NCBI GenBank assembly: GCA_017458975.1
Contig: JAFSZK010000057.1
Coordinates: forward strand, 11,978 to 75,977
DNA length: 64,000 nt
Source: Eubacterium sp.
GTDB lineage: Bacteria; Bacillota; Clostridia; Oscillospirales; Acutalibacteraceae
Direction of reading: 5' to 3'
In this document: positions 38,610-45,390 of the stretch, one piece after another
How the letters are laid out: every line of letters begins with the position of its first letter
Numbering within the stretch: the stretch's first letter is position 1
Program-made: the position numbers and the translations under genes
The notes under the pieces: generated by a model
Databases searched by the model: none
Seen by the model: the letters and a program-made list of their open reading frames with translations, nothing else
Told to the model about the DNA's origin: nothing

Positions 38610-39707
38610 ATGGGAATGTTATTCCAGATTTACGGTGATACAAGCATCTGGCAGCTTGTCGGATGGTGTCTTGCTTTCACCGGACTCGTTGTTGCTAATG
38701 AAATAGCACGACGCACCAAGATAGGCGGTATTTTCTGCTTTATCGTTTTACCCTCAGCCCTTACGGTTTACTTTATTGCAATCAACATTGCAGCCAAATC
38801 AGGCGCTGAATGGGCAGTAAACAACCCGACAATTGTTCAGATGAACGGTTGGTTCCACTATGCAAAGCTCTATGCGGCAACAGTCGGCTGTATCGGCTTT
38901 ATGATTCTTAAATATCAGTGGGGCAGCCTCGGAAAGAGCCATTGGTTCAAGGCTTATCCGTTCCTTATTGTTGGTATTAACATCCTTATCGCGGTTGCTT
39001 CCGACTTCGAATCTGCAGTAAAAGGTATGCAGATTGGCGGAATGCAAGGCGGCTGGTGGTATTCATCAGAAGGCGTATGGCTTTACGGCGGCTGGTGGAA
39101 TATCCTCAACGGTATCGCGGGCTTAATCAACATTATGTGTATGACCGGCTGGTGGGGAATCTACTCCTCGAAAGACCAGAAGGATATGCTCTGGCCCGAT
39201 ATGACCTGGCAGTTCATCCTTGCATACGATGTTTGGAACTTTGAGTATACTTACCTCAATCTTCCTCTTCACACCTGGTACTGCGGTGTTGCACTTCTTC
39301 TTGCACCGACCTTTGCAAACCTCTTCTGGAACAAGGGCGGCTGGATTCAGAACCGTGCAAACACTCTTGCACTCTGGTGTATGTTCGCTCAGGTTGTTCC
39401 CGGATTCCAGAACCACTCACGTTTCACAACTCTTCCCACAGTTTACAAAGCAGCAGAGAGATTTGCTACCGGCGCTGACGGAAGAATGAATCCTGACCTC
39501 GTTCTCAGCGCTTCCGACGCTAACCCGACAGCTCAGGGCGTAGTTGCTATTCTTGCTATCGCTGTTAATGTTCTTGTTATTACAAACATTATTAAGAGAG
39601 CTAAGGAGCAGAAGAAGAATCCGTATAAGAACGAAATCTTTGCTGATACAAAAGACTTCAAGCTTGCTCTTGAAAGAGCAGCTGCAGCTAATAAAGAGGT
39701 AGCATAA
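38610..39707 (+). CDS. Multi-pass membrane protein, DUF5692-like
   Basis: Trp-rich TM protein with WFHYAKLY, NILIAVASDFE, DMLWPDMTW and WIQNRANTL; family recognised from memory. Confidence 0.6.
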   Translation: MGMLFQIYGDTSIWQLVGWCLAFTGLVVANEIARRTKIGGIFCFIVLPSALTVYFIAINIAAKSGAEWAVNNPTIVQMNGWFHYAKLYAATVGCIGFMILKYQWGSLGKSHWFKAYPFLIVGINILIAVASDFESAVKGMQIGGMQGGWWYSSEGVWLYGGWWNILNGIAGLINIMCMTGWWGIYSSKDQKDMLWPDMTWQFILAYDVWNFEYTYLNLPLHTWYCGVALLLAPTFANLFWNKGGWIQNRANTLALWCMFAQVVPGFQNHSRFTTLPTVYKAAERFATGADGRMNPDLVLSASDANPTAQGVVAILAIAVNVLVITNIIKRAKEQKKNPYKNEIFADTKDFKLALERAAAANKEVA

Positions 39708-39716
39708 AAAAATAAG

Positions 39717-39746
39717 AAAGGCAGTTGAGAAATCAACTGCCTTTTT
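39717..39746. terminator. Bidirectional terminator between convergent operons
   Basis: aaaggcagttga-gaaa-tcaactgccttt hairpin. Confidence 0.8.
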
Positions 39747-39747
39747 A

Positions 39748-42273
39748 TTATGCCGTAACTATATCGTTTGCGCTTTGTAAGCCGAGCTTTTTAACCGCGT
39801 CCTCGCGCATCTGGTACTTAAGGATTTTACCCGCTGCGTTCATCGGGAAAGCGTCAACAAAATCAACGTATCTCGGAACCTTATGCCTTGCCATGCTTGC
39901 TCCGACAAAATCCTTCATTTCCTGTTCGGTCATACTTTCGCCTTCTTTAAGGATGACGCAAGCCATAATCTCCTCGCCGTACTGCTCGTCGGGTACGCCG
40001 ATAACCTGAACGTCGCTTACCTTCGGGTTGGTGTAAATAAATTCCTCAATCTCCTTGGGATAAATATTTTCACCGCCGCGGATAATCATATCCTTAAGAC
40101 GTCCCGTAATCTTATAGTTTCCGTCGGGCGTCTTACACGCAAGGTCGCCCGTATGGAGCCAGCCGTCCTTGTCAATAGCTTCGCTCGTTGCCTTGGGCAT
40201 CTTGTAGTAGCCCTTCATAATATTGTAGCCCCTTGCAAGGAATTCGCCCGGTACGTCGTACGGACACTCCTCGCCCGTTTCGGGGTCAACAATTTTACAC
40301 TCAATCTCGGGCATTGCGCGTCCTACGGTTGCAACGCGAACCTCAAGCGGGTCGTCAGTCGAGCTCATAGTACAGCCCGGTGACGCCTCGGTCTGACCGT
40401 ATACGATTACGATTTCGGTCATATTCATTTTATTTACAACGTCCTGCATTGCCGAAATAGGACAGGGGCTGCCCGCCATAATTCCCGTTCTCATATACGA
40501 AAAGTCGGTCTTTTCAAAATCGGGATGCTCAAGCAATGCGATAAACATTGTAGGTACGCCGTGAAAGGCGGTAATATGCTCGTTATTAATACACGCAAGC
40601 GACGGCTTGGGTGAAAAATACGGAATAGGAAGCAGCGTTCCGCCGTGGGTCATAGTCGACGTCATTGCAAGCACCATACCGAAGCAGTGGAACATCGGAA
40701 CCTGAATCATCATTCTGTCCGCGGTAGACAAATCCATTCTGTCGCCTATGCACTTTCCGTTATTAACAATATTATAATGGGTAAGCATAACTCCCTTCGG
40801 GAAGCCCGTTGTACCCGAGGTGTACTGCATATTGCATACGTCGTCGGGCTTAACAGCTGCCGCCATTGCGTAAACCTTTTCCTTATTAACCCTGCTTGCA
40901 TATTCAAGCGCTTCGTTCCATTCGATACAGCCCTTTTGCTTAAAGCCGACGGTAATAACGTTACGAAGGAAGGGAAGGCGCTTGCTGTGAAGCTGTTCGC
41001 CCTTCTTTGTATTTTCAAGCTCGGGGCACAAACGCGCAATAATATCGCCGTAGCTCGTGTCCTTTGCTCCCTCGGTAATAACAAGGGTGTGGGTATCGCT
41101 CTGTTTTAAAAGGTATTCCGCCTCGGCAATTTTATAAGCGGTATTAACCGTTACAAGAACCGCGCCGATTTTTACCGTAGCCCAGAAGGTGATAAACCAC
41201 TGTGGAACGTTTGACGCCCATATCGCAACGTGGCTTCCCGCCTTAACGCCCATTGAAATCAGCACTCTTGCAAATTCGTCAACGTCGTCGCGGAATTCGC
41301 TGTAGGTTCTTGTATAATCAAGGGTTGTGTATTTAAACGCATACTGGTCGGGGAATTCTTCAACCATACGGTCAAGCACCTCGCCGAAGGTCTTTTCAAT
41401 AAGAAGGTCCTTTTTCCAAACGCATCTTCCCGTATGGGTTCTGTTATAGTAAAGGGTCTTTTCCTTGCCCGCGGTATAGTTAAACTGCTTCATAAAGTTT
41501 ACGAAATGGGCAAAGATAATTTCCATATCGTCAAGCTCCTCGCACCATCTCGGGTCCCATACAAGCGAGGTAAAGCCGTCAAAGTTAACGCTTCTTAAAG
41601 CAAGCATAATTTCCTTAAGCGGAAGCTCACCCTCACCGATTAAGCAGTATTCAAAGCCTTCGTCGCTCTTTCTGCAATCGGTAAGCTGGACATGTTTAAC
41701 GTAAGCTCCGAGATTTGTAATAATCGTATCGGGGTTTTCGCCTACGCTCTGATATGCCTCGGCTACGTTCCAAAGAGCCGCAAGGCTGTCGCTTGCAAAA
41801 TTCTCAAGAATATCGCGAAGGTTCGAGGTATCGGCAAACATACCCTTTGTTTCAATTAAAACTACTACTCCCTTTGCTTCGGCAAGGGGAACTATTTTTT
41901 CGAGCATTTCGGTAACAAAGGCAAAGCTCTTTTCAGTTTTTTCGCCGTGCTCCGCTCTTACTCTTATATAAGGAATATGAAGATTGCCCGCAACGTTAAG
42001 GCACGCCTCAACCTCCTTCATTGTATCCTCTGCTTTTTCGGTATCCGAAATGTCGCAAATCGTATCCATACACGCAAGGGAAAGCTTTTTTTCATAGAGC
42101 TTCCTTAACGTAGCGTTAGCCGTATAATCGTGGAACGCTCCGTCCTTGTCGGTAAAAAGAGGGTTATGGATATTATGAAGCTCTATACCCTTAAAGCCTA
42201 AATCTACGGCTGTGTTACAGAAATCGTCAAAGCTGATTCCGTACCAGCCCTTAGTTGAAAACGAAAGCTTCAT
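39748..42273 (-). CDS. Fusion of a degenerate xylose-isomerase-like TIM barrel and an acyl-CoA synthetase (AMP-binding)
   Basis: N-terminal roughly 265 aa MKLSFST..GFKGIEL..IET..KHVQLTD..GEGELP (AP-endonuclease-2-like). C-terminal part has intact YTSGTTGFPKG, YGQTE, WLHTGD, IIRGGENIYP and GKILK. Confidence 0.88.
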   Translation of the reverse strand: MKLSFSTKGWYGISFDDFCNTAVDLGFKGIELHNIHNPLFTDKDGAFHDYTANATLRKLYEKKLSLACMDTICDISDTEKAEDTMKEVEACLNVAGNLHIPYIRVRAEHGEKTEKSFAFVTEMLEKIVPLAEAKGVVVLIETKGMFADTSNLRDILENFASDSLAALWNVAEAYQSVGENPDTIITNLGAYVKHVQLTDCRKSDEGFEYCLIGEGELPLKEIMLALRSVNFDGFTSLVWDPRWCEELDDMEIIFAHFVNFMKQFNYTAGKEKTLYYNRTHTGRCVWKKDLLIEKTFGEVLDRMVEEFPDQYAFKYTTLDYTRTYSEFRDDVDEFARVLISMGVKAGSHVAIWASNVPQWFITFWATVKIGAVLVTVNTAYKIAEAEYLLKQSDTHTLVITEGAKDTSYGDIIARLCPELENTKKGEQLHSKRLPFLRNVITVGFKQKGCIEWNEALEYASRVNKEKVYAMAAAVKPDDVCNMQYTSGTTGFPKGVMLTHYNIVNNGKCIGDRMDLSTADRMMIQVPMFHCFGMVLAMTSTMTHGGTLLPIPYFSPKPSLACINNEHITAFHGVPTMFIALLEHPDFEKTDFSYMRTGIMAGSPCPISAMQDVVNKMNMTEIVIVYGQTEASPGCTMSSTDDPLEVRVATVGRAMPEIECKIVDPETGEECPYDVPGEFLARGYNIMKGYYKMPKATSEAIDKDGWLHTGDLACKTPDGNYKITGRLKDMIIRGGENIYPKEIEEFIYTNPKVSDVQVIGVPDEQYGEEIMACVILKEGESMTEQEMKDFVGASMARHKVPRYVDFVDAFPMNAAGKILKYQMREDAVKKLGLQSANDIVTA

Positions 42274-43652
42274 TAATTTTCCTCCTCATAAACAATTTTA
42301 TTAATTGCATTGAGATATGCTCTGATGCTTGCGCCGATAATATCGGTTGAAATACCGTTGCCCGAATAGAGCTTTGAGCCCGAGCGAAGCTTAACAACAG
42401 CAGAGCCCATTGCCTCCTTACCCTCGGTAACGGCCTGAATCTGAAAATCATCAAGCTCATAGTGGCTTCCGATAATGGAGTCAATTGCAATAAAGGACGC
42501 GTCAATCGGTCCGTCGCCGAGCTTAATGCTCTCAAGCGTTTCGCCGTCCTTTTCAAGAACGATATGCGCGCTTGCGGTTATGATATTTCCGTTATTTATA
42601 ATATAGCTGACAAGCTTATAAGCCGACGGAACCTGAAGCGCGGCGGAGGCTACTATTGCGTCAAGCTCCTTTGCTCCGACGTTCTTCTTATTTGCAACGC
42701 GGAGAAATTCCTTATATACCTTGCCCCCGTCCTCATCGGAAAGGTCGTAGCCGAGCTTTTTAACGGCTGAAAGAACAGTCTCCTCGGTATCGGATTTATC
42801 AAGTCTTATTCCCTCGAACTCCGTACTTACCGTAACGGTTGTCCTGTCGTTTTTAGCGTTGTCGGTAATCCAGTTAATCTGGGATACGATTCGGTTAAGC
42901 TCGGTATATTTAAGGCTTGACTTAATACCGTAGTCAATACCGTAGTCCTTAATAATTGAGCCGAAGGTATCAAGCTCGGTTGTATCTCCGCCGACTGCGC
43001 ACTTAACGCAGGCAGCGCCGTTTCTTACGGCAAGAATAGCCTGAGCCGCCGCAAGACCCGTCTTATTATTACATTTAATGCCGATGGGCACGCCCGTATT
43101 TTCGATTACCTCCTTAACAAAGCAGGCAAAATCGTCGGGAAGCATCGAACCCGCCGTATCGCATACGGTAATCTTATCCGCGCCCGCGTCGGTAGCCTTT
43201 TTAATTGCTTCGTAAAGAAAATCGCGCTCCGCTCTTGTTGCGTCAACGGCGCAAAATTCAACGCCGTTTTTTGTTTGCCCCGCTTTCTTTACGGTAAGCT
43301 CAATCCAGCTGAGCATTTTAGCCGGCTTTTTATGACAGGTATACTCCATTCCCACGGGAGATACGGGAAGCTCAATTCTTATAACGCCTTTCTTCGCCTT
43401 ATCAAGCGCCTCGGCAGCAAAGTCAATACTCTCCTCGCTCATACCTGCCGCAACGGAAAGAACACCGTTATTGACAAATGCCGAAACAGTGCGCAGTAAT
43501 AGAACGTCTGTTTTTTCGTTTTCGATTTCGGGAAATTCGATAATATCGACATTTAGCTTTTCAAGCTGACGCGCAATTTCAATTTTCTCTTTAAAAGAGA
43601 AGGAGTTGTTTTCTCTGCACAATGTTGTGTCTGCAATTTTAATGCCTTTCAT
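42273..43652 (-). CDS. 2-isopropylmalate synthase-like protein with eroded active site and intact LeuA regulatory domain
   Basis: IADTTLCRE, DATRA, DTAG and KCNNKTGLAAA in the barrel; C-terminal GDGPIDA..QAVTEG.EAMG..SGNGISTDIIGASIRAYLNA. Start MKGIK at 43652 (AAAGGA RBS). Confidence 0.85.
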   Translation of the reverse strand: MKGIKIADTTLCRENNSFSFKEKIEIARQLEKLNVDIIEFPEIENEKTDVLLLRTVSAFVNNGVLSVAAGMSEESIDFAAEALDKAKKGVIRIELPVSPVGMEYTCHKKPAKMLSWIELTVKKAGQTKNGVEFCAVDATRAERDFLYEAIKKATDAGADKITVCDTAGSMLPDDFACFVKEVIENTGVPIGIKCNNKTGLAAAQAILAVRNGAACVKCAVGGDTTELDTFGSIIKDYGIDYGIKSSLKYTELNRIVSQINWITDNAKNDRTTVTVSTEFEGIRLDKSDTEETVLSAVKKLGYDLSDEDGGKVYKEFLRVANKKNVGAKELDAIVASAALQVPSAYKLVSYIINNGNIITASAHIVLEKDGETLESIKLGDGPIDASFIAIDSIIGSHYELDDFQIQAVTEGKEAMGSAVVKLRSGSKLYSGNGISTDIIGASIRAYLNAINKIVYEEEN

Positions 43653-43671
43653 AGTATTCTTCCTTTCGATA

Positions 43672-43922
43672 TAAAATAATAAAGTCCCCGAGCCTATGCT
43701 CAGGGACGGGATAAACCGCGGTACCACCCTAATTGACCTTAAGGTCCTCTCAGCGAGATTCCATCAAATCTCCTGCCATGATAACGGGGCAATCCGTAGC
43801 CGCTTACTTATTCGGCGGCTCTGCTCGGGAACGAGACTTGGTATCCGCTCGCGCTGTCTTACACCGACCGACAGCTCTCTTTGCCGAGTTGAGAATAACA
43901 ATTAATTCCGTCATTGCATTTG
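43672..43922 (-). ncRNA. T-box riboswitch, likely Leu specifier (CUC)
   Basis: On the minus strand: stem I with AGAGAG and GGUGUAA motifs, CUC at 43835-43833, stem II with AGUA, CCGUUA, T-box AAUUAGGGUGGUACCGCG (43734-43717), and terminator hairpin 43707-43684 with a U tract. Confidence 0.92.
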
Positions 43923-43943
43923 GGTTTTATTTGATTGCAAACT

Positions 43944-43972
43944 ATAATATCACAATTTATATTTTATGTCAA
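43944..43972 (-). promoter_or_regulatory. Sigma-70 promoter of the T-box leader
   Basis: TTGACA-N17-TATTAT on the minus strand. Confidence 0.8.
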
Positions 43973-44100: not shown

Positions 44101-45390
44101 ATGAAAAACAAGACAAAAACAAAAAAGATAATATCCGTTATCCTTGTTATTACGGTTATAGTATCAATCGGCGCCGTTGCCGGTTTTAATGCATTTTCCG
44201 TTGAACCGCTCGGCGAACACAGCTATGTTTATCAATACCGACGCGGCGCAAGGCTTTATTATAAATGCACCCACTGCGGCGATTACAGCCATTACGAAAG
44301 TGCAAAAAATCTTCGCCTTGCCTTTGAGGACGCTGTTACAAGCGAGGATAATCCGTATCATCAAAGCAATTACGACGGACGTTTTGATATTCTCAGGGAC
44401 GGATTTATAAACGCCAAGGATTATACGCTCATCAACGATATGGCGTCCGGAAAGTCGACGGATTATGACAAAATCCTTACTAATGAAAACGCAACCGAAA
44501 GAGCTAAAAGACTTTACCGTTATATCTGTAAGACCTATAAAAACAAAACCTTTTCGGGTCAGCAGGAATCAACCTGGATGGACTCTCCCGAATACGAGAT
44601 GAACTATCTTTATCAGACAACGGGAAAATACCCCGCAATCCGCGGACTTGATTTTATTAACGACGATTTTAACGGCGTTGTTCAGCGCGCAAAAGCGTGG
44701 GACGCAAGGGGCGGAATTGTAACAATCTGTTGGCACTGCTCAAAGAATTTTAATTTAGGCTATAACGAGTGCAAGGCTGACGAGCTCACTCCCGCCGAGT
44801 GGGAGGCTGTTTTAACCGACGGCACCCCCGAGCACGCCGCGTTTATTAACGCAATGGACAGGGCGGGCAATGCTCTGCTTCAGCTTCAAAGCGACGGTAT
44901 TCCCGTGCTTTGGAGACCCTTCCACGAGTTTGACGGAGGCTGGTTCTGGTGGGGCAAGGGCGGATATGATTATTTCAAGCGCCTTTGGATTATGATGCAC
45001 GACCACTTTACAAACGACCTCGGACTCAATAATTTAATCTGGGTTCTCGGTTATTCCCACAACGGAACCGACTACGGCGAAAACCTTACCAACTGGTACC
45101 CGGGCTATCAGTACGTTGATATTGCGGGAGCGGACAGCTATGAGGTTGCTCAAAACGGCGCGGAGCAAAGACTTTTCACCCCCGTAAATACTGCGGCAAA
45201 TTATATTAAGCCGCTTGCTATGCACGAAACGGGCTTAATTCCGACCGTAACGCAGCTTCAAAACGTCGGCTGGGTATTCTTTATGACCTGGCATACAAAT
45301 TATTTAACCGACGAAAACACGCCCGAGCATCTCAGCGGAATATATAACAGCGAATATGTAATTACGCTTGATGAATTAGAGGAATTTTAA
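44101..45390 (+). CDS. Secreted GH26 beta-mannanase with an N-terminal CxxC/EF-hand (dockerin-like) module
   Basis: Signal peptide; CTHC and DILRDGFINAKD; GKYPAIRGLD, VTICWH, WRPFHEFDGGWFWWG (acid/base), WYPG..YVDIAG.DSY, LAMHETG (nucleophile). Confidence 0.92.
   Translation: MKNKTKTKKIISVILVITVIVSIGAVAGFNAFSVEPLGEHSYVYQYRRGARLYYKCTHCGDYSHYESAKNLRLAFEDAVTSEDNPYHQSNYDGRFDILRDGFINAKDYTLINDMASGKSTDYDKILTNENATERAKRLYRYICKTYKNKTFSGQQESTWMDSPEYEMNYLYQTTGKYPAIRGLDFINDDFNGVVQRAKAWDARGGIVTICWHCSKNFNLGYNECKADELTPAEWEAVLTDGTPEHAAFINAMDRAGNALLQLQSDGIPVLWRPFHEFDGGWFWWGKGGYDYFKRLWIMMHDHFTNDLGLNNLIWVLGYSHNGTDYGENLTNWYPGYQYVDIAGADSYEVAQNGAEQRLFTPVNTAANYIKPLAMHETGLIPTVTQLQNVGWVFFMTWHTNYLTDENTPEHLSGIYNSEYVITLDELEEF

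Follow-up and report, generated by a model that had tools for sequence, protein, structure and literature searches.

A two-gene operon is described here that lies in a 64,000-nt stretch of DNA (hereafter the window) from Eubacterium sp., an uncultured gut or rumen bacterium of the family Acutalibacteraceae (assembly GCA_017458975.1, contig JAFSZK010000057.1, positions 11,978–75,977) and that is considered as a candidate for the supply of leucine from a branched short-chain fatty acid. The operon positions are given in window numbering, and all operon elements are located on the minus strand (Table 1). In the order of transcription the operon consists of a promoter, a leader of the T-box class, a gene for a LeuA-derived protein designated pLeuA, a gene for a fusion of a triose-phosphate isomerase (TIM) barrel with an acyl-CoA synthetase (ACS), designated TIM-ACS, and a terminator. 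The initial annotation of this DNA, which was made from the sequence alone, had listed these elements together with the TAATG overlap of the two genes, and all of them are present. It had also named leucine as the amino acid of the specifier, described the LeuA-like protein as devoid of catalytic residues and the adenylation motifs of the synthetase as intact, and pointed to the lack of leuB, leuC, and leuD in the operon; these statements are borne out by the evidence given below.

Table 1. Features of the operon and of its divergent neighbour in window coordinates (aa, amino acids; pLDDT, predicted local distance difference test).
Feature	Position	Strand	Evidence or remarks
Sigma-70-type promoter, TTGACA-17 nt-(TG)TATTAT	43944..43972	-	Near-consensus, 11/12 matches, TG extension
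T-box leader, Rfam RF00230	43699..43923	-	108.4 bits, model positions 1-219 of 219
Specifier CUC (Leu)	43835-43833	-	Rfam alignment; next base G at 43832
T-box bulge UGGU, pairs with tRNA acceptor	43726-43723	-	Rfam alignment; pairs with discriminator A
T-box intrinsic terminator	43674..43707	-	10-bp stem, 7 G-C pairs, U tract; hairpin at 43707-43684
pLeuA gene, 459 aa	42273..43652	-	ATG start at 43652 after GGAAG ribosome-binding site
TIM-ACS fusion gene, 841 aa	39748..42273	-	AP_endonuc_2, AMP-binding, and AMP-binding_C domains
Xylose-isomerase-like TIM barrel, aa 1-265	41479..42273	-	PF01261, 71 bits (cut-off 31)
Flexible linker of ~30 residues, aa 266-294	41392..41478	-	pLDDT ~31 in full-length model
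AMP-forming acyl-CoA synthetase domain, aa 295-841 and stop codon	39748..41391	-	PF00501 312 bits, PF13193 67 bits
Operon terminator	39717..39744	-	12-bp stem, then T tract; shared with convergent gene ending at 39707
Divergent 429-aa gene	44101-45390	+	Signal-anchor-like N-terminus, HEFDGGWFWWG motif

The -35/-10 pattern of the promoter aligns across related loci. The leader matches the complete Rfam model above its gathering score of 93 bits, and the 5' arm of its intrinsic terminator overlaps the 3' side of the antiterminator, which makes the two structures mutually exclusive. The strict T-box core motif was found in 59 of 76 upstream regions of pLeuA relatives, and the context AAG(U/C)CUC(A/G)UUCC surrounds the specifier in all parsed pLeuA leaders, far above the chance expectation. 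Since the Rfam match covers the full model and CUC with the following purine is conserved in all parsed relatives, the T-box is genuine and specific for leucine. Further downstream the stop codon of the pLeuA gene overlaps the next ATG by one base at 42273, and no leuB, leuC, or leuD is found within the operon.

pLeuA and the TIM-barrel/acyl-CoA synthetase fusion

According to the domain search the pLeuA protein is built of a degenerate HMGL-like barrel (aa 1–270), a linker subdomain, and an intact LeuA_dimer domain (aa ~326–459), which matched PF08502 with 102 bits over positions 4–130 of 131. Against the LeuA families it stayed below the cut-offs, with 270 bits for NF002086, about half of the required 532, and 238 bits for TIGR00973 (cut-off 599). 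In comparison with solved LeuA structures all catalytic motifs are replaced: RDGEQ reads CRE--NN, HCHxD with the HxH metal motif reads KCNNK, NGIGERAGN reads GGDTTELDT, and the barrel glutamate of LeuA is a valine (AVDATR). In Mycobacterium tuberculosis LeuA changes of R80 or E218 destroy the activity (reviewed in PMC10464499). The catalytic motifs are likewise lost in all members of the pLeuA family, including relatives at 40–49% identity, where the former active-site positions are hypervariable, and canonical LeuA genes from the same bacterial family retain every one of them. Judged by these replacements, pLeuA is not a condensing enzyme. The possibility that pLeuA has acquired a different active site in the former location was rejected, since these positions are hypervariable.

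Across 76 pLeuA members 36% of the columns are invariant in the regulatory domain and 12% in the barrel, and the ratio of nonsynonymous to synonymous substitution rates (dN/dS), taken against the closest relative with unsaturated dS, is 0.07 for the former and 0.18 for the latter. These values together with the invariance indicate that pLeuA is maintained by purifying selection and that the allosteric domain is its most constrained part. Two invariant motifs, GDGPIDA and GISTDIIGAS, correspond in a weak alignment (E = 0.45 for the whole chain) to GNGPLAA and GIAPSITTAS in the regulatory domain of M. tuberculosis LeuA. In the M. tuberculosis domain the leucine carboxylate is held between two helix N-termini (PMC11057210), and both helix-N-terminus motifs are kept in pLeuA. 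When the regulatory-domain profile was compared with the PDB, weak alignments only were obtained (E = 0.036 to 0.45), and a single-sequence search of this domain against the PDB gave no match. Gene fusions of pLeuA with TIM-ACS, which were sought as evidence of interaction, were not found among the 120 best homologues. The origin of the T-box and pLeuA as the recycled head of an ancestral leu operon was considered too and is unsupported, since the canonical leuA of the family stands directly behind ilvC/ilvD with no T-box in front.

The best NCBIfam family of the ACS domain is NF009233/PRK12583, which it matched with 694 bits, below the cut-off of 832. The core motifs A3, A5, A7, and A8 and the A10 lysine are present and invariant in 62 relatives, the invariant motifs being TSGTTGFPKG, YGQTE, HTGD, GRLKDMIIRGGENIYP, and the lysine in AGKILK. 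In the fusion family 54% of the positions are invariant in the ACS domain and 23% in the linker region (aa 266–295). The identity across relatives amounts to 73–93% for the ACS domain, 50–80% for pLeuA, and 45–73% for the TIM domain, and purifying selection was detected on all four domains, with the pLeuA regulatory domain and the ACS domain being the most constrained.

The structure model of the TIM domain has a pLDDT of 92, and a Foldseek search with this model retrieved Art22 isomerase, AsbF, IolI, and UlaE at template modelling (TM) scores of 0.75–0.8 and 12–20% identity. The metal tetrad of the window protein reads E141, N169, Q196, and V238, so that three of the four canonical E-D-H-E ligands are lost. 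The barrel had been described as metal-deficient in the initial annotation, which is right for the window lineage and wrong for the family as a whole, where the tetrad is E-D-H-E in about half of the members and E-N-H-V in about a third, E-N-Q-V being the version of the window. By position, among 62 sequences residue 169 is D in 30 and N in 26, residue 196 is H in 54, and residue 238 is E in 30 and V in 29. A clear standalone relative of the TIM domain was not found among the matches listed, which are short or partial and in many cases run into the start of an AMP-binding domain; most standalone-like matches are probably contig-end fragments of the same fusion. The full-length TIM-ACS model is poor (pLDDT 72, predicted TM score 0.51, disordered linker) and uninformative on the domain arrangement.

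Conservation of the gene pair and its genomic context

At least 566 pLeuA relatives were confirmed in species-representative genomes, mostly of Acutalibacteraceae, Oscillospiraceae, Ruminococcus, and other Clostridia from ruminant and other gut samples. In 98 of 102 pLeuA loci TIM-ACS starts within a few bases of the pLeuA end, while the remaining four have no assignable TIM-ACS start on the same strand over a distance of 200 bases, and several of these loci end at a contig edge. The pairing of pLeuA and TIM-ACS, which the initial annotation had expected to be conserved, is obligate. The description of the module as two genes has to be corrected, since it usually has three genes, the third being an Amidohydro_2 gene that abuts TIM-ACS directly downstream in 52 of the first 80 loci (e.g. 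L021:9908-10717). Its product of ~269 aa contains an HxH motif and has no NCBIfam match. The window is without this gene, and the terminator follows there directly after the synthetase. Decay of the TIM metal site showed no association with the loss of the Amidohydro_2 gene. Paralogues of Amidohydro_2 were also observed beside the Ile-type synthetase described below (locus L101) and in a separate cluster on contig C19 of the window's genome.

Clustering of open reading frames (ORFs) revealed several more recurrent neighbours, namely a class IV aminotransferase, the alpha, beta, and gamma subunits of a 2-oxoacid:ferredoxin oxidoreductase (OFOR), a ParA/NUBPL-like P-loop gene, and an acyl-CoA synthetase with N-terminal helix-turn-helix (HTH) and cupin domains. 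In dozens of genomes these genes form an array in the order pLeuA, TIM-ACS, (Amidohydro_2), HTH-cupin-ACS 1, HTH-cupin-ACS 2, ParA-like gene, OFOR alpha/beta/gamma, and branched-chain aminotransferase (BCAT), with the pLeuA module divergent in some cases and located behind the aminotransferase in others. A set of 80 further loci, gathered with the HTH-cupin synthetase of the window's own genome as the query, displays this recurrent array.

Each of the three synthetases in the array proved to have a T-box of its own. The T-box core precedes HTH-cupin-ACS 1 in 65 of 70 leaders, where the parsed specifier loops read ..CC(C/U)AUC(A/C)CUUC and designate isoleucine (AUC), and it precedes HTH-cupin-ACS 2 in 49 of 51 leaders, most of the parsed ones reading ..UUUGUA(G/A)CUUC, which designates valine (GUA); the pLeuA leaders carry CUC. 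Three full-length T-boxes were located by Rfam at the array positions in loci L102 and L117. The OFOR alpha subunit matches the VorB family NF005507 (556 bits against a cut-off of 399) of the 2-oxoisovalerate:ferredoxin oxidoreductases (Vor). The HTH-cupin synthetases score best against MbcS, which is the 2-methylbutyrate/isobutyrate-CoA ligase of Staphylococcus aureus (PMC10026030). Three ligases, each gated by one branched-chain tRNA, together with one Vor and one aminotransferase make up the layout that would be expected for the conversion of 2-methylbutyrate, isobutyrate, and isovalerate to isoleucine, valine, and leucine. As a separate observation on the Ile-type leaders, the base after the AUC specifier is A or C and not the usual purine.

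The co-occurrence of the pair with leuB and Vor, to which the initial annotation had drawn attention, was followed in 151 genomes representing 150 genera of the window's bacterial family. In this set pLeuA was found in 29 genomes and LeuB above the cut-off in 89. LeuB is absent in 28 of the 29 pLeuA carriers and present in 88 of the 122 non-carriers (Fisher p = 3e-12), and a Vor alpha subunit at >=71% identity is encoded by 28 of the 29 carriers versus 4 of the 122 non-carriers, usually at less than 10 kb from pLeuA. Another species of the window's genus (G026) possesses LeuB, IlvD, and a LeuC-type gene, the last with 145 and 125 bits, below the TIGR00170 cut-off, and has neither pLeuA nor the Vor type.

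The window's own assembly (1.85 Mb, 90% complete) contains nothing above the family cut-offs for LeuA, LeuB, LeuC, leuD, and IlvD. The other parts of the array are dispersed there: on contig C89 (20448-26267) an Ile (AUC) T-box is followed by an MbcS-like HTH-cupin-ACS gene, a ParA/NUBPL-like gene, a small ferredoxin-like ORF, and Vor alpha/beta/gamma, where the alpha subunit matches NF005507 (VorB) and the beta, gamma, and delta subunits adjoin. An aminotransferase with 36% identity to the Aminotran_4 protein of the syntenic arrays is encoded on contig C68. The leucine-gated genes are thus unlinked from Vor in this genome and reduced to the pair itself. Other T-boxes of the genome belong to valS, pheST, asnS, thrS, Trp genes, and one Cys gene.

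Two more loci of this genome resemble parts of the system. On contig C14 (1029-3298) a split HTH-cupin synthetase is encoded by genes of 182 aa (HTH-cupin) and 565 aa (ACS) with 48% identity to the Ile-type enzyme, and the whole-genome Rfam scan revealed no T-box on this contig; the split enzyme may be the ligase of the Val arm or may represent a third specificity. The cluster on contig C19 (23887-32686), with assignments made by eye and tblastn only, includes an acyl-CoA synthetase, IorA/IorB-like subunits, a PaaK-like ligase, an ACT-domain protein, a sodium:solute symporter, and an amidohydrolase, and may constitute an analogous route from arylacetates to aromatic amino acids. In the window the operon is flanked by a divergent secreted-protein gene, whose product may resemble a GH26-type glycanase, and by a convergent membrane-protein gene, both of which are unrelated to the operon.

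The proposed isovalerate-to-leucine route and its alternatives

The operon is likely to form the leucine arm of a system under T-box control, in which reductive carboxylation turns branched short-chain fatty acids into branched-chain amino acids. In such a system uncharged tRNA-Leu would stabilise the antiterminator, so that both genes are transcribed; the synthetase would convert isovalerate, ATP, and CoA to isovaleryl-CoA, which Vor with reduced ferredoxin would carboxylate to 4-methyl-2-oxopentanoate, and an aminotransferase would turn this keto-acid into leucine. The anabolic direction is indicated by the AMP-forming ligase and by the induction through uncharged tRNA, and the catabolic direction, from amino acid to acid, was rejected on the grounds of the same ligase type and T-box logic. 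A route from isovalerate to leucine under leucine starvation had already been proposed in the initial annotation: it is strongly backed by the conservation of the pair, the synteny, the Vor/LeuB pattern, and the absence of the isopropylmalate and IlvD genes, although as a whole the interpretation can be called only partly supported. More speculative are the two remaining parts of the scheme, in which the non-catalytic pLeuA would sense leucine as a partner of the synthetase and hold back the first, ATP-consuming step, and the TIM domain would have an accessory or docking role, its ancestral metal-dependent activity having become dispensable in the window lineage.

The function of pLeuA as a leucine sensor for the synthetase is plausible, since conservation in pLeuA is highest in the regulatory domain, the arrangement of the abutting genes suggests translational coupling, and purifying selection acts on them. 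In a fuller version pLeuA would be the recycled allosteric module of the isopropylmalate route, whose first enzyme would have lost catalysis as isovalerate carboxylation took over and would have persisted as a leucine-sensing subunit bound to TIM-ACS that gives end-product feedback, with the partly decayed TIM domain as a docking platform; this version is put forward tentatively and is somewhat less likely than not. The binding of leucine and the restraint of the ligase by pLeuA would mirror the feedback on LeuA in the classical pathway. Both the HTH-cupin part of the MbcS-like enzymes and the ACT protein next to the PaaK-like ligase of contig C19 hint that the attachment of sensor domains to such ligases may be a general theme.

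The same protein might instead be a structural scaffold or chaperone, which either stabilises the synthetase or passes keto-acid and CoA intermediates among synthetase, Vor, and aminotransferase. Such a role would agree with the fact that the degenerate barrel is still under purifying selection (dN/dS 0.18) and retains the LeuA structural motifs EFxAxDATR and DTxG, and the abutting genes suggest a fixed stoichiometry; however, it is the regulatory domain and not the barrel that is conserved most (36% versus 12% invariant), and the hypervariable old active-site positions argue against a conserved ligand site there, which makes the scaffold an unlikely function for pLeuA.

MbcS-type ligases are known to feed branched fatty-acid synthesis from exogenous acids (PMC10026030, PMC11167679), and by analogy with MbcS in S. 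aureus isovaleryl-CoA could serve as a primer for iso-branched membrane fatty acids instead of leucine synthesis. Leucine starvation would remove the leucine-derived primer, and the sister synthetases, as mentioned, resemble MbcS most. This destination is nevertheless quite improbable: the module is syntenic with Vor and an aminotransferase, neither of which is required for lipid priming, its presence tracks the loss of LeuB, and T-boxes, which respond to the charging of tRNA, usually control the supply of amino acids. Lipid priming and leucine synthesis are not mutually exclusive. Least probable of all is a different precursor, from which a short undescribed pathway would lead to isovaleryl-CoA or the leucine keto-acid, its enzymes being the TIM barrel, the product of Amidohydro_2, and perhaps pLeuA. 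In favour of this reading are the full E-D-H-E tetrad in half of the family, the HxH-containing Amidohydro_2 gene that follows the synthetase gene in 52 of the first 80 loci, and the reversible decarboxylases within the Amidohydro_2 superfamily (weak PDB matches). Against it stand the window and its clade, in which three of the four TIM ligands are gone and Amidohydro_2 is missing but purifying selection still maintains the pair, the independence of the TIM ligand signature from the presence of the amidohydrolase, and the lack of a conserved substitute active site in pLeuA.

Several observations weigh against the preferred route from isovalerate to leucine. In the window's genome Vor is located on another contig behind an Ile and not a Leu T-box, and starvation for leucine only would therefore rely on basal expression of Vor. 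Among the 35 tRNAs found in the draft the Leu anticodons are CAA, UAA, CAG, and UAG, and the anticodon GAG, which reads CUC, was not seen; the draft tRNA set is incomplete, with tRNA-Ile, tRNA-His, tRNA-Phe, and tRNA-Ala also undetected, and the gene for tRNA-Leu(GAG) may simply be missing from the assembly. That the synthetase acts on isovalerate is deduced solely from its Leu T-box, from the Vor and aminotransferase genes found in synteny with it, and from the Ile- and Val-gated sister ligases, and the leucine-arm enzyme falls into a different ACS family (PRK12583/ACSF2-like) from these MbcS-like sisters. The TIM domain and the Amidohydro_2 protein, the latter present in about three quarters of relatives, are left unexplained by the scheme, and the pathway may hold a further step. 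One genome (G073) has LeuB and the module together, its pLeuA being equally dead. Finally, the co-occurrence statistics ignore shared ancestry, an objection against which the contrast within one genus, between the window's genome and G026, is of help.

Significance and relation to known systems

The physiology of isoacid carboxylation, the Vor enzymes, the T-boxes, and the MbcS-type ligases are already established. A full-text search of the literature found no description of the gene pair, of the array with three T-boxes, or of a LeuA-derived pseudoenzyme partner, and in the literature searched no genes are assigned to the isoacid activation step in Clostridia or to its tRNA-sensing regulation. 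The operon and its Ile and Val sister genes represent concrete candidate genes for this step. Such a system would explain the apparent leucine auxotrophy of hundreds of uncultured species, would improve the metabolic models of gut and rumen genomes, and would have a bearing on isoacid feed supplementation.

It has been known since the 1960s that fibre degraders of the rumen and gut need isoacids and carboxylate them to branched-chain amino acids; Allison and Bryant reportedly demonstrated in that decade the reductive carboxylation of isovalerate, isobutyrate, and 2-methylbutyrate to leucine, valine, and isoleucine in rumen bacteria. In relation to this pathway and to the anabolic VorABC(D) enzymes the operon would supply the activation step that they need, and the other parts of the rumen-type pathway, a VorB-family oxidoreductase and an aminotransferase, are syntenic with it in relatives and present in the window's genome.

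Among the ligases the closest comparison is S. aureus MbcS with the MbcS-like HTH-cupin enzymes, which are AMP-forming and act, or are predicted to act, on short branched acids. The leucine-arm synthetase is predicted to be an AMP-forming ligase for such acids as well; in contrast to MbcS, it is a member of a different ANL subfamily (PRK12583-like), has a TIM barrel at its N-terminus in place of HTH-cupin, and is paired with a separate protein, pLeuA. The clusters of IorAB, PaaK-like ligase, and ACT protein, one of which lies on contig C19, follow the same design idea as the ligase with pLeuA, that is, an acid-CoA ligase and an oxidoreductase accompanied by a small regulator of the amino-acid-binding type, but they differ in having an ACT sensor instead of LeuA_dimer and aromatic substrates, and no T-box was seen there.

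In regulation the nearest counterpart among Firmicutes is the ilv-leu operon of Bacillus subtilis, where leucine supply is controlled by a T-box with the CUC specifier. The riboswitch class, the specifier codon, and the logic, with read-through into leucine-supply genes in response to uncharged tRNA-Leu, are the same in both cases; however, the operon described here controls an acyl-CoA synthetase and a dead LeuA rather than the isopropylmalate pathway, and it resides in a genome without leuBCD.

With LeuA itself (EC 2.3.3.13; TIGR00973/NF002086; PDB 3ewb, 3rmj, 1sr9/3fig) pLeuA shares the domain order and the regulatory-domain motifs, whereas the Arg-Asp-Gly-Glu-Gln motif, the HxH ligands, the barrel glutamate, and GERAGN are all replaced; if the proposed sensor role is true, this dead LeuA would illustrate clearly how a pseudoenzyme can bring the allosteric control of an abandoned pathway into the one that took its place.

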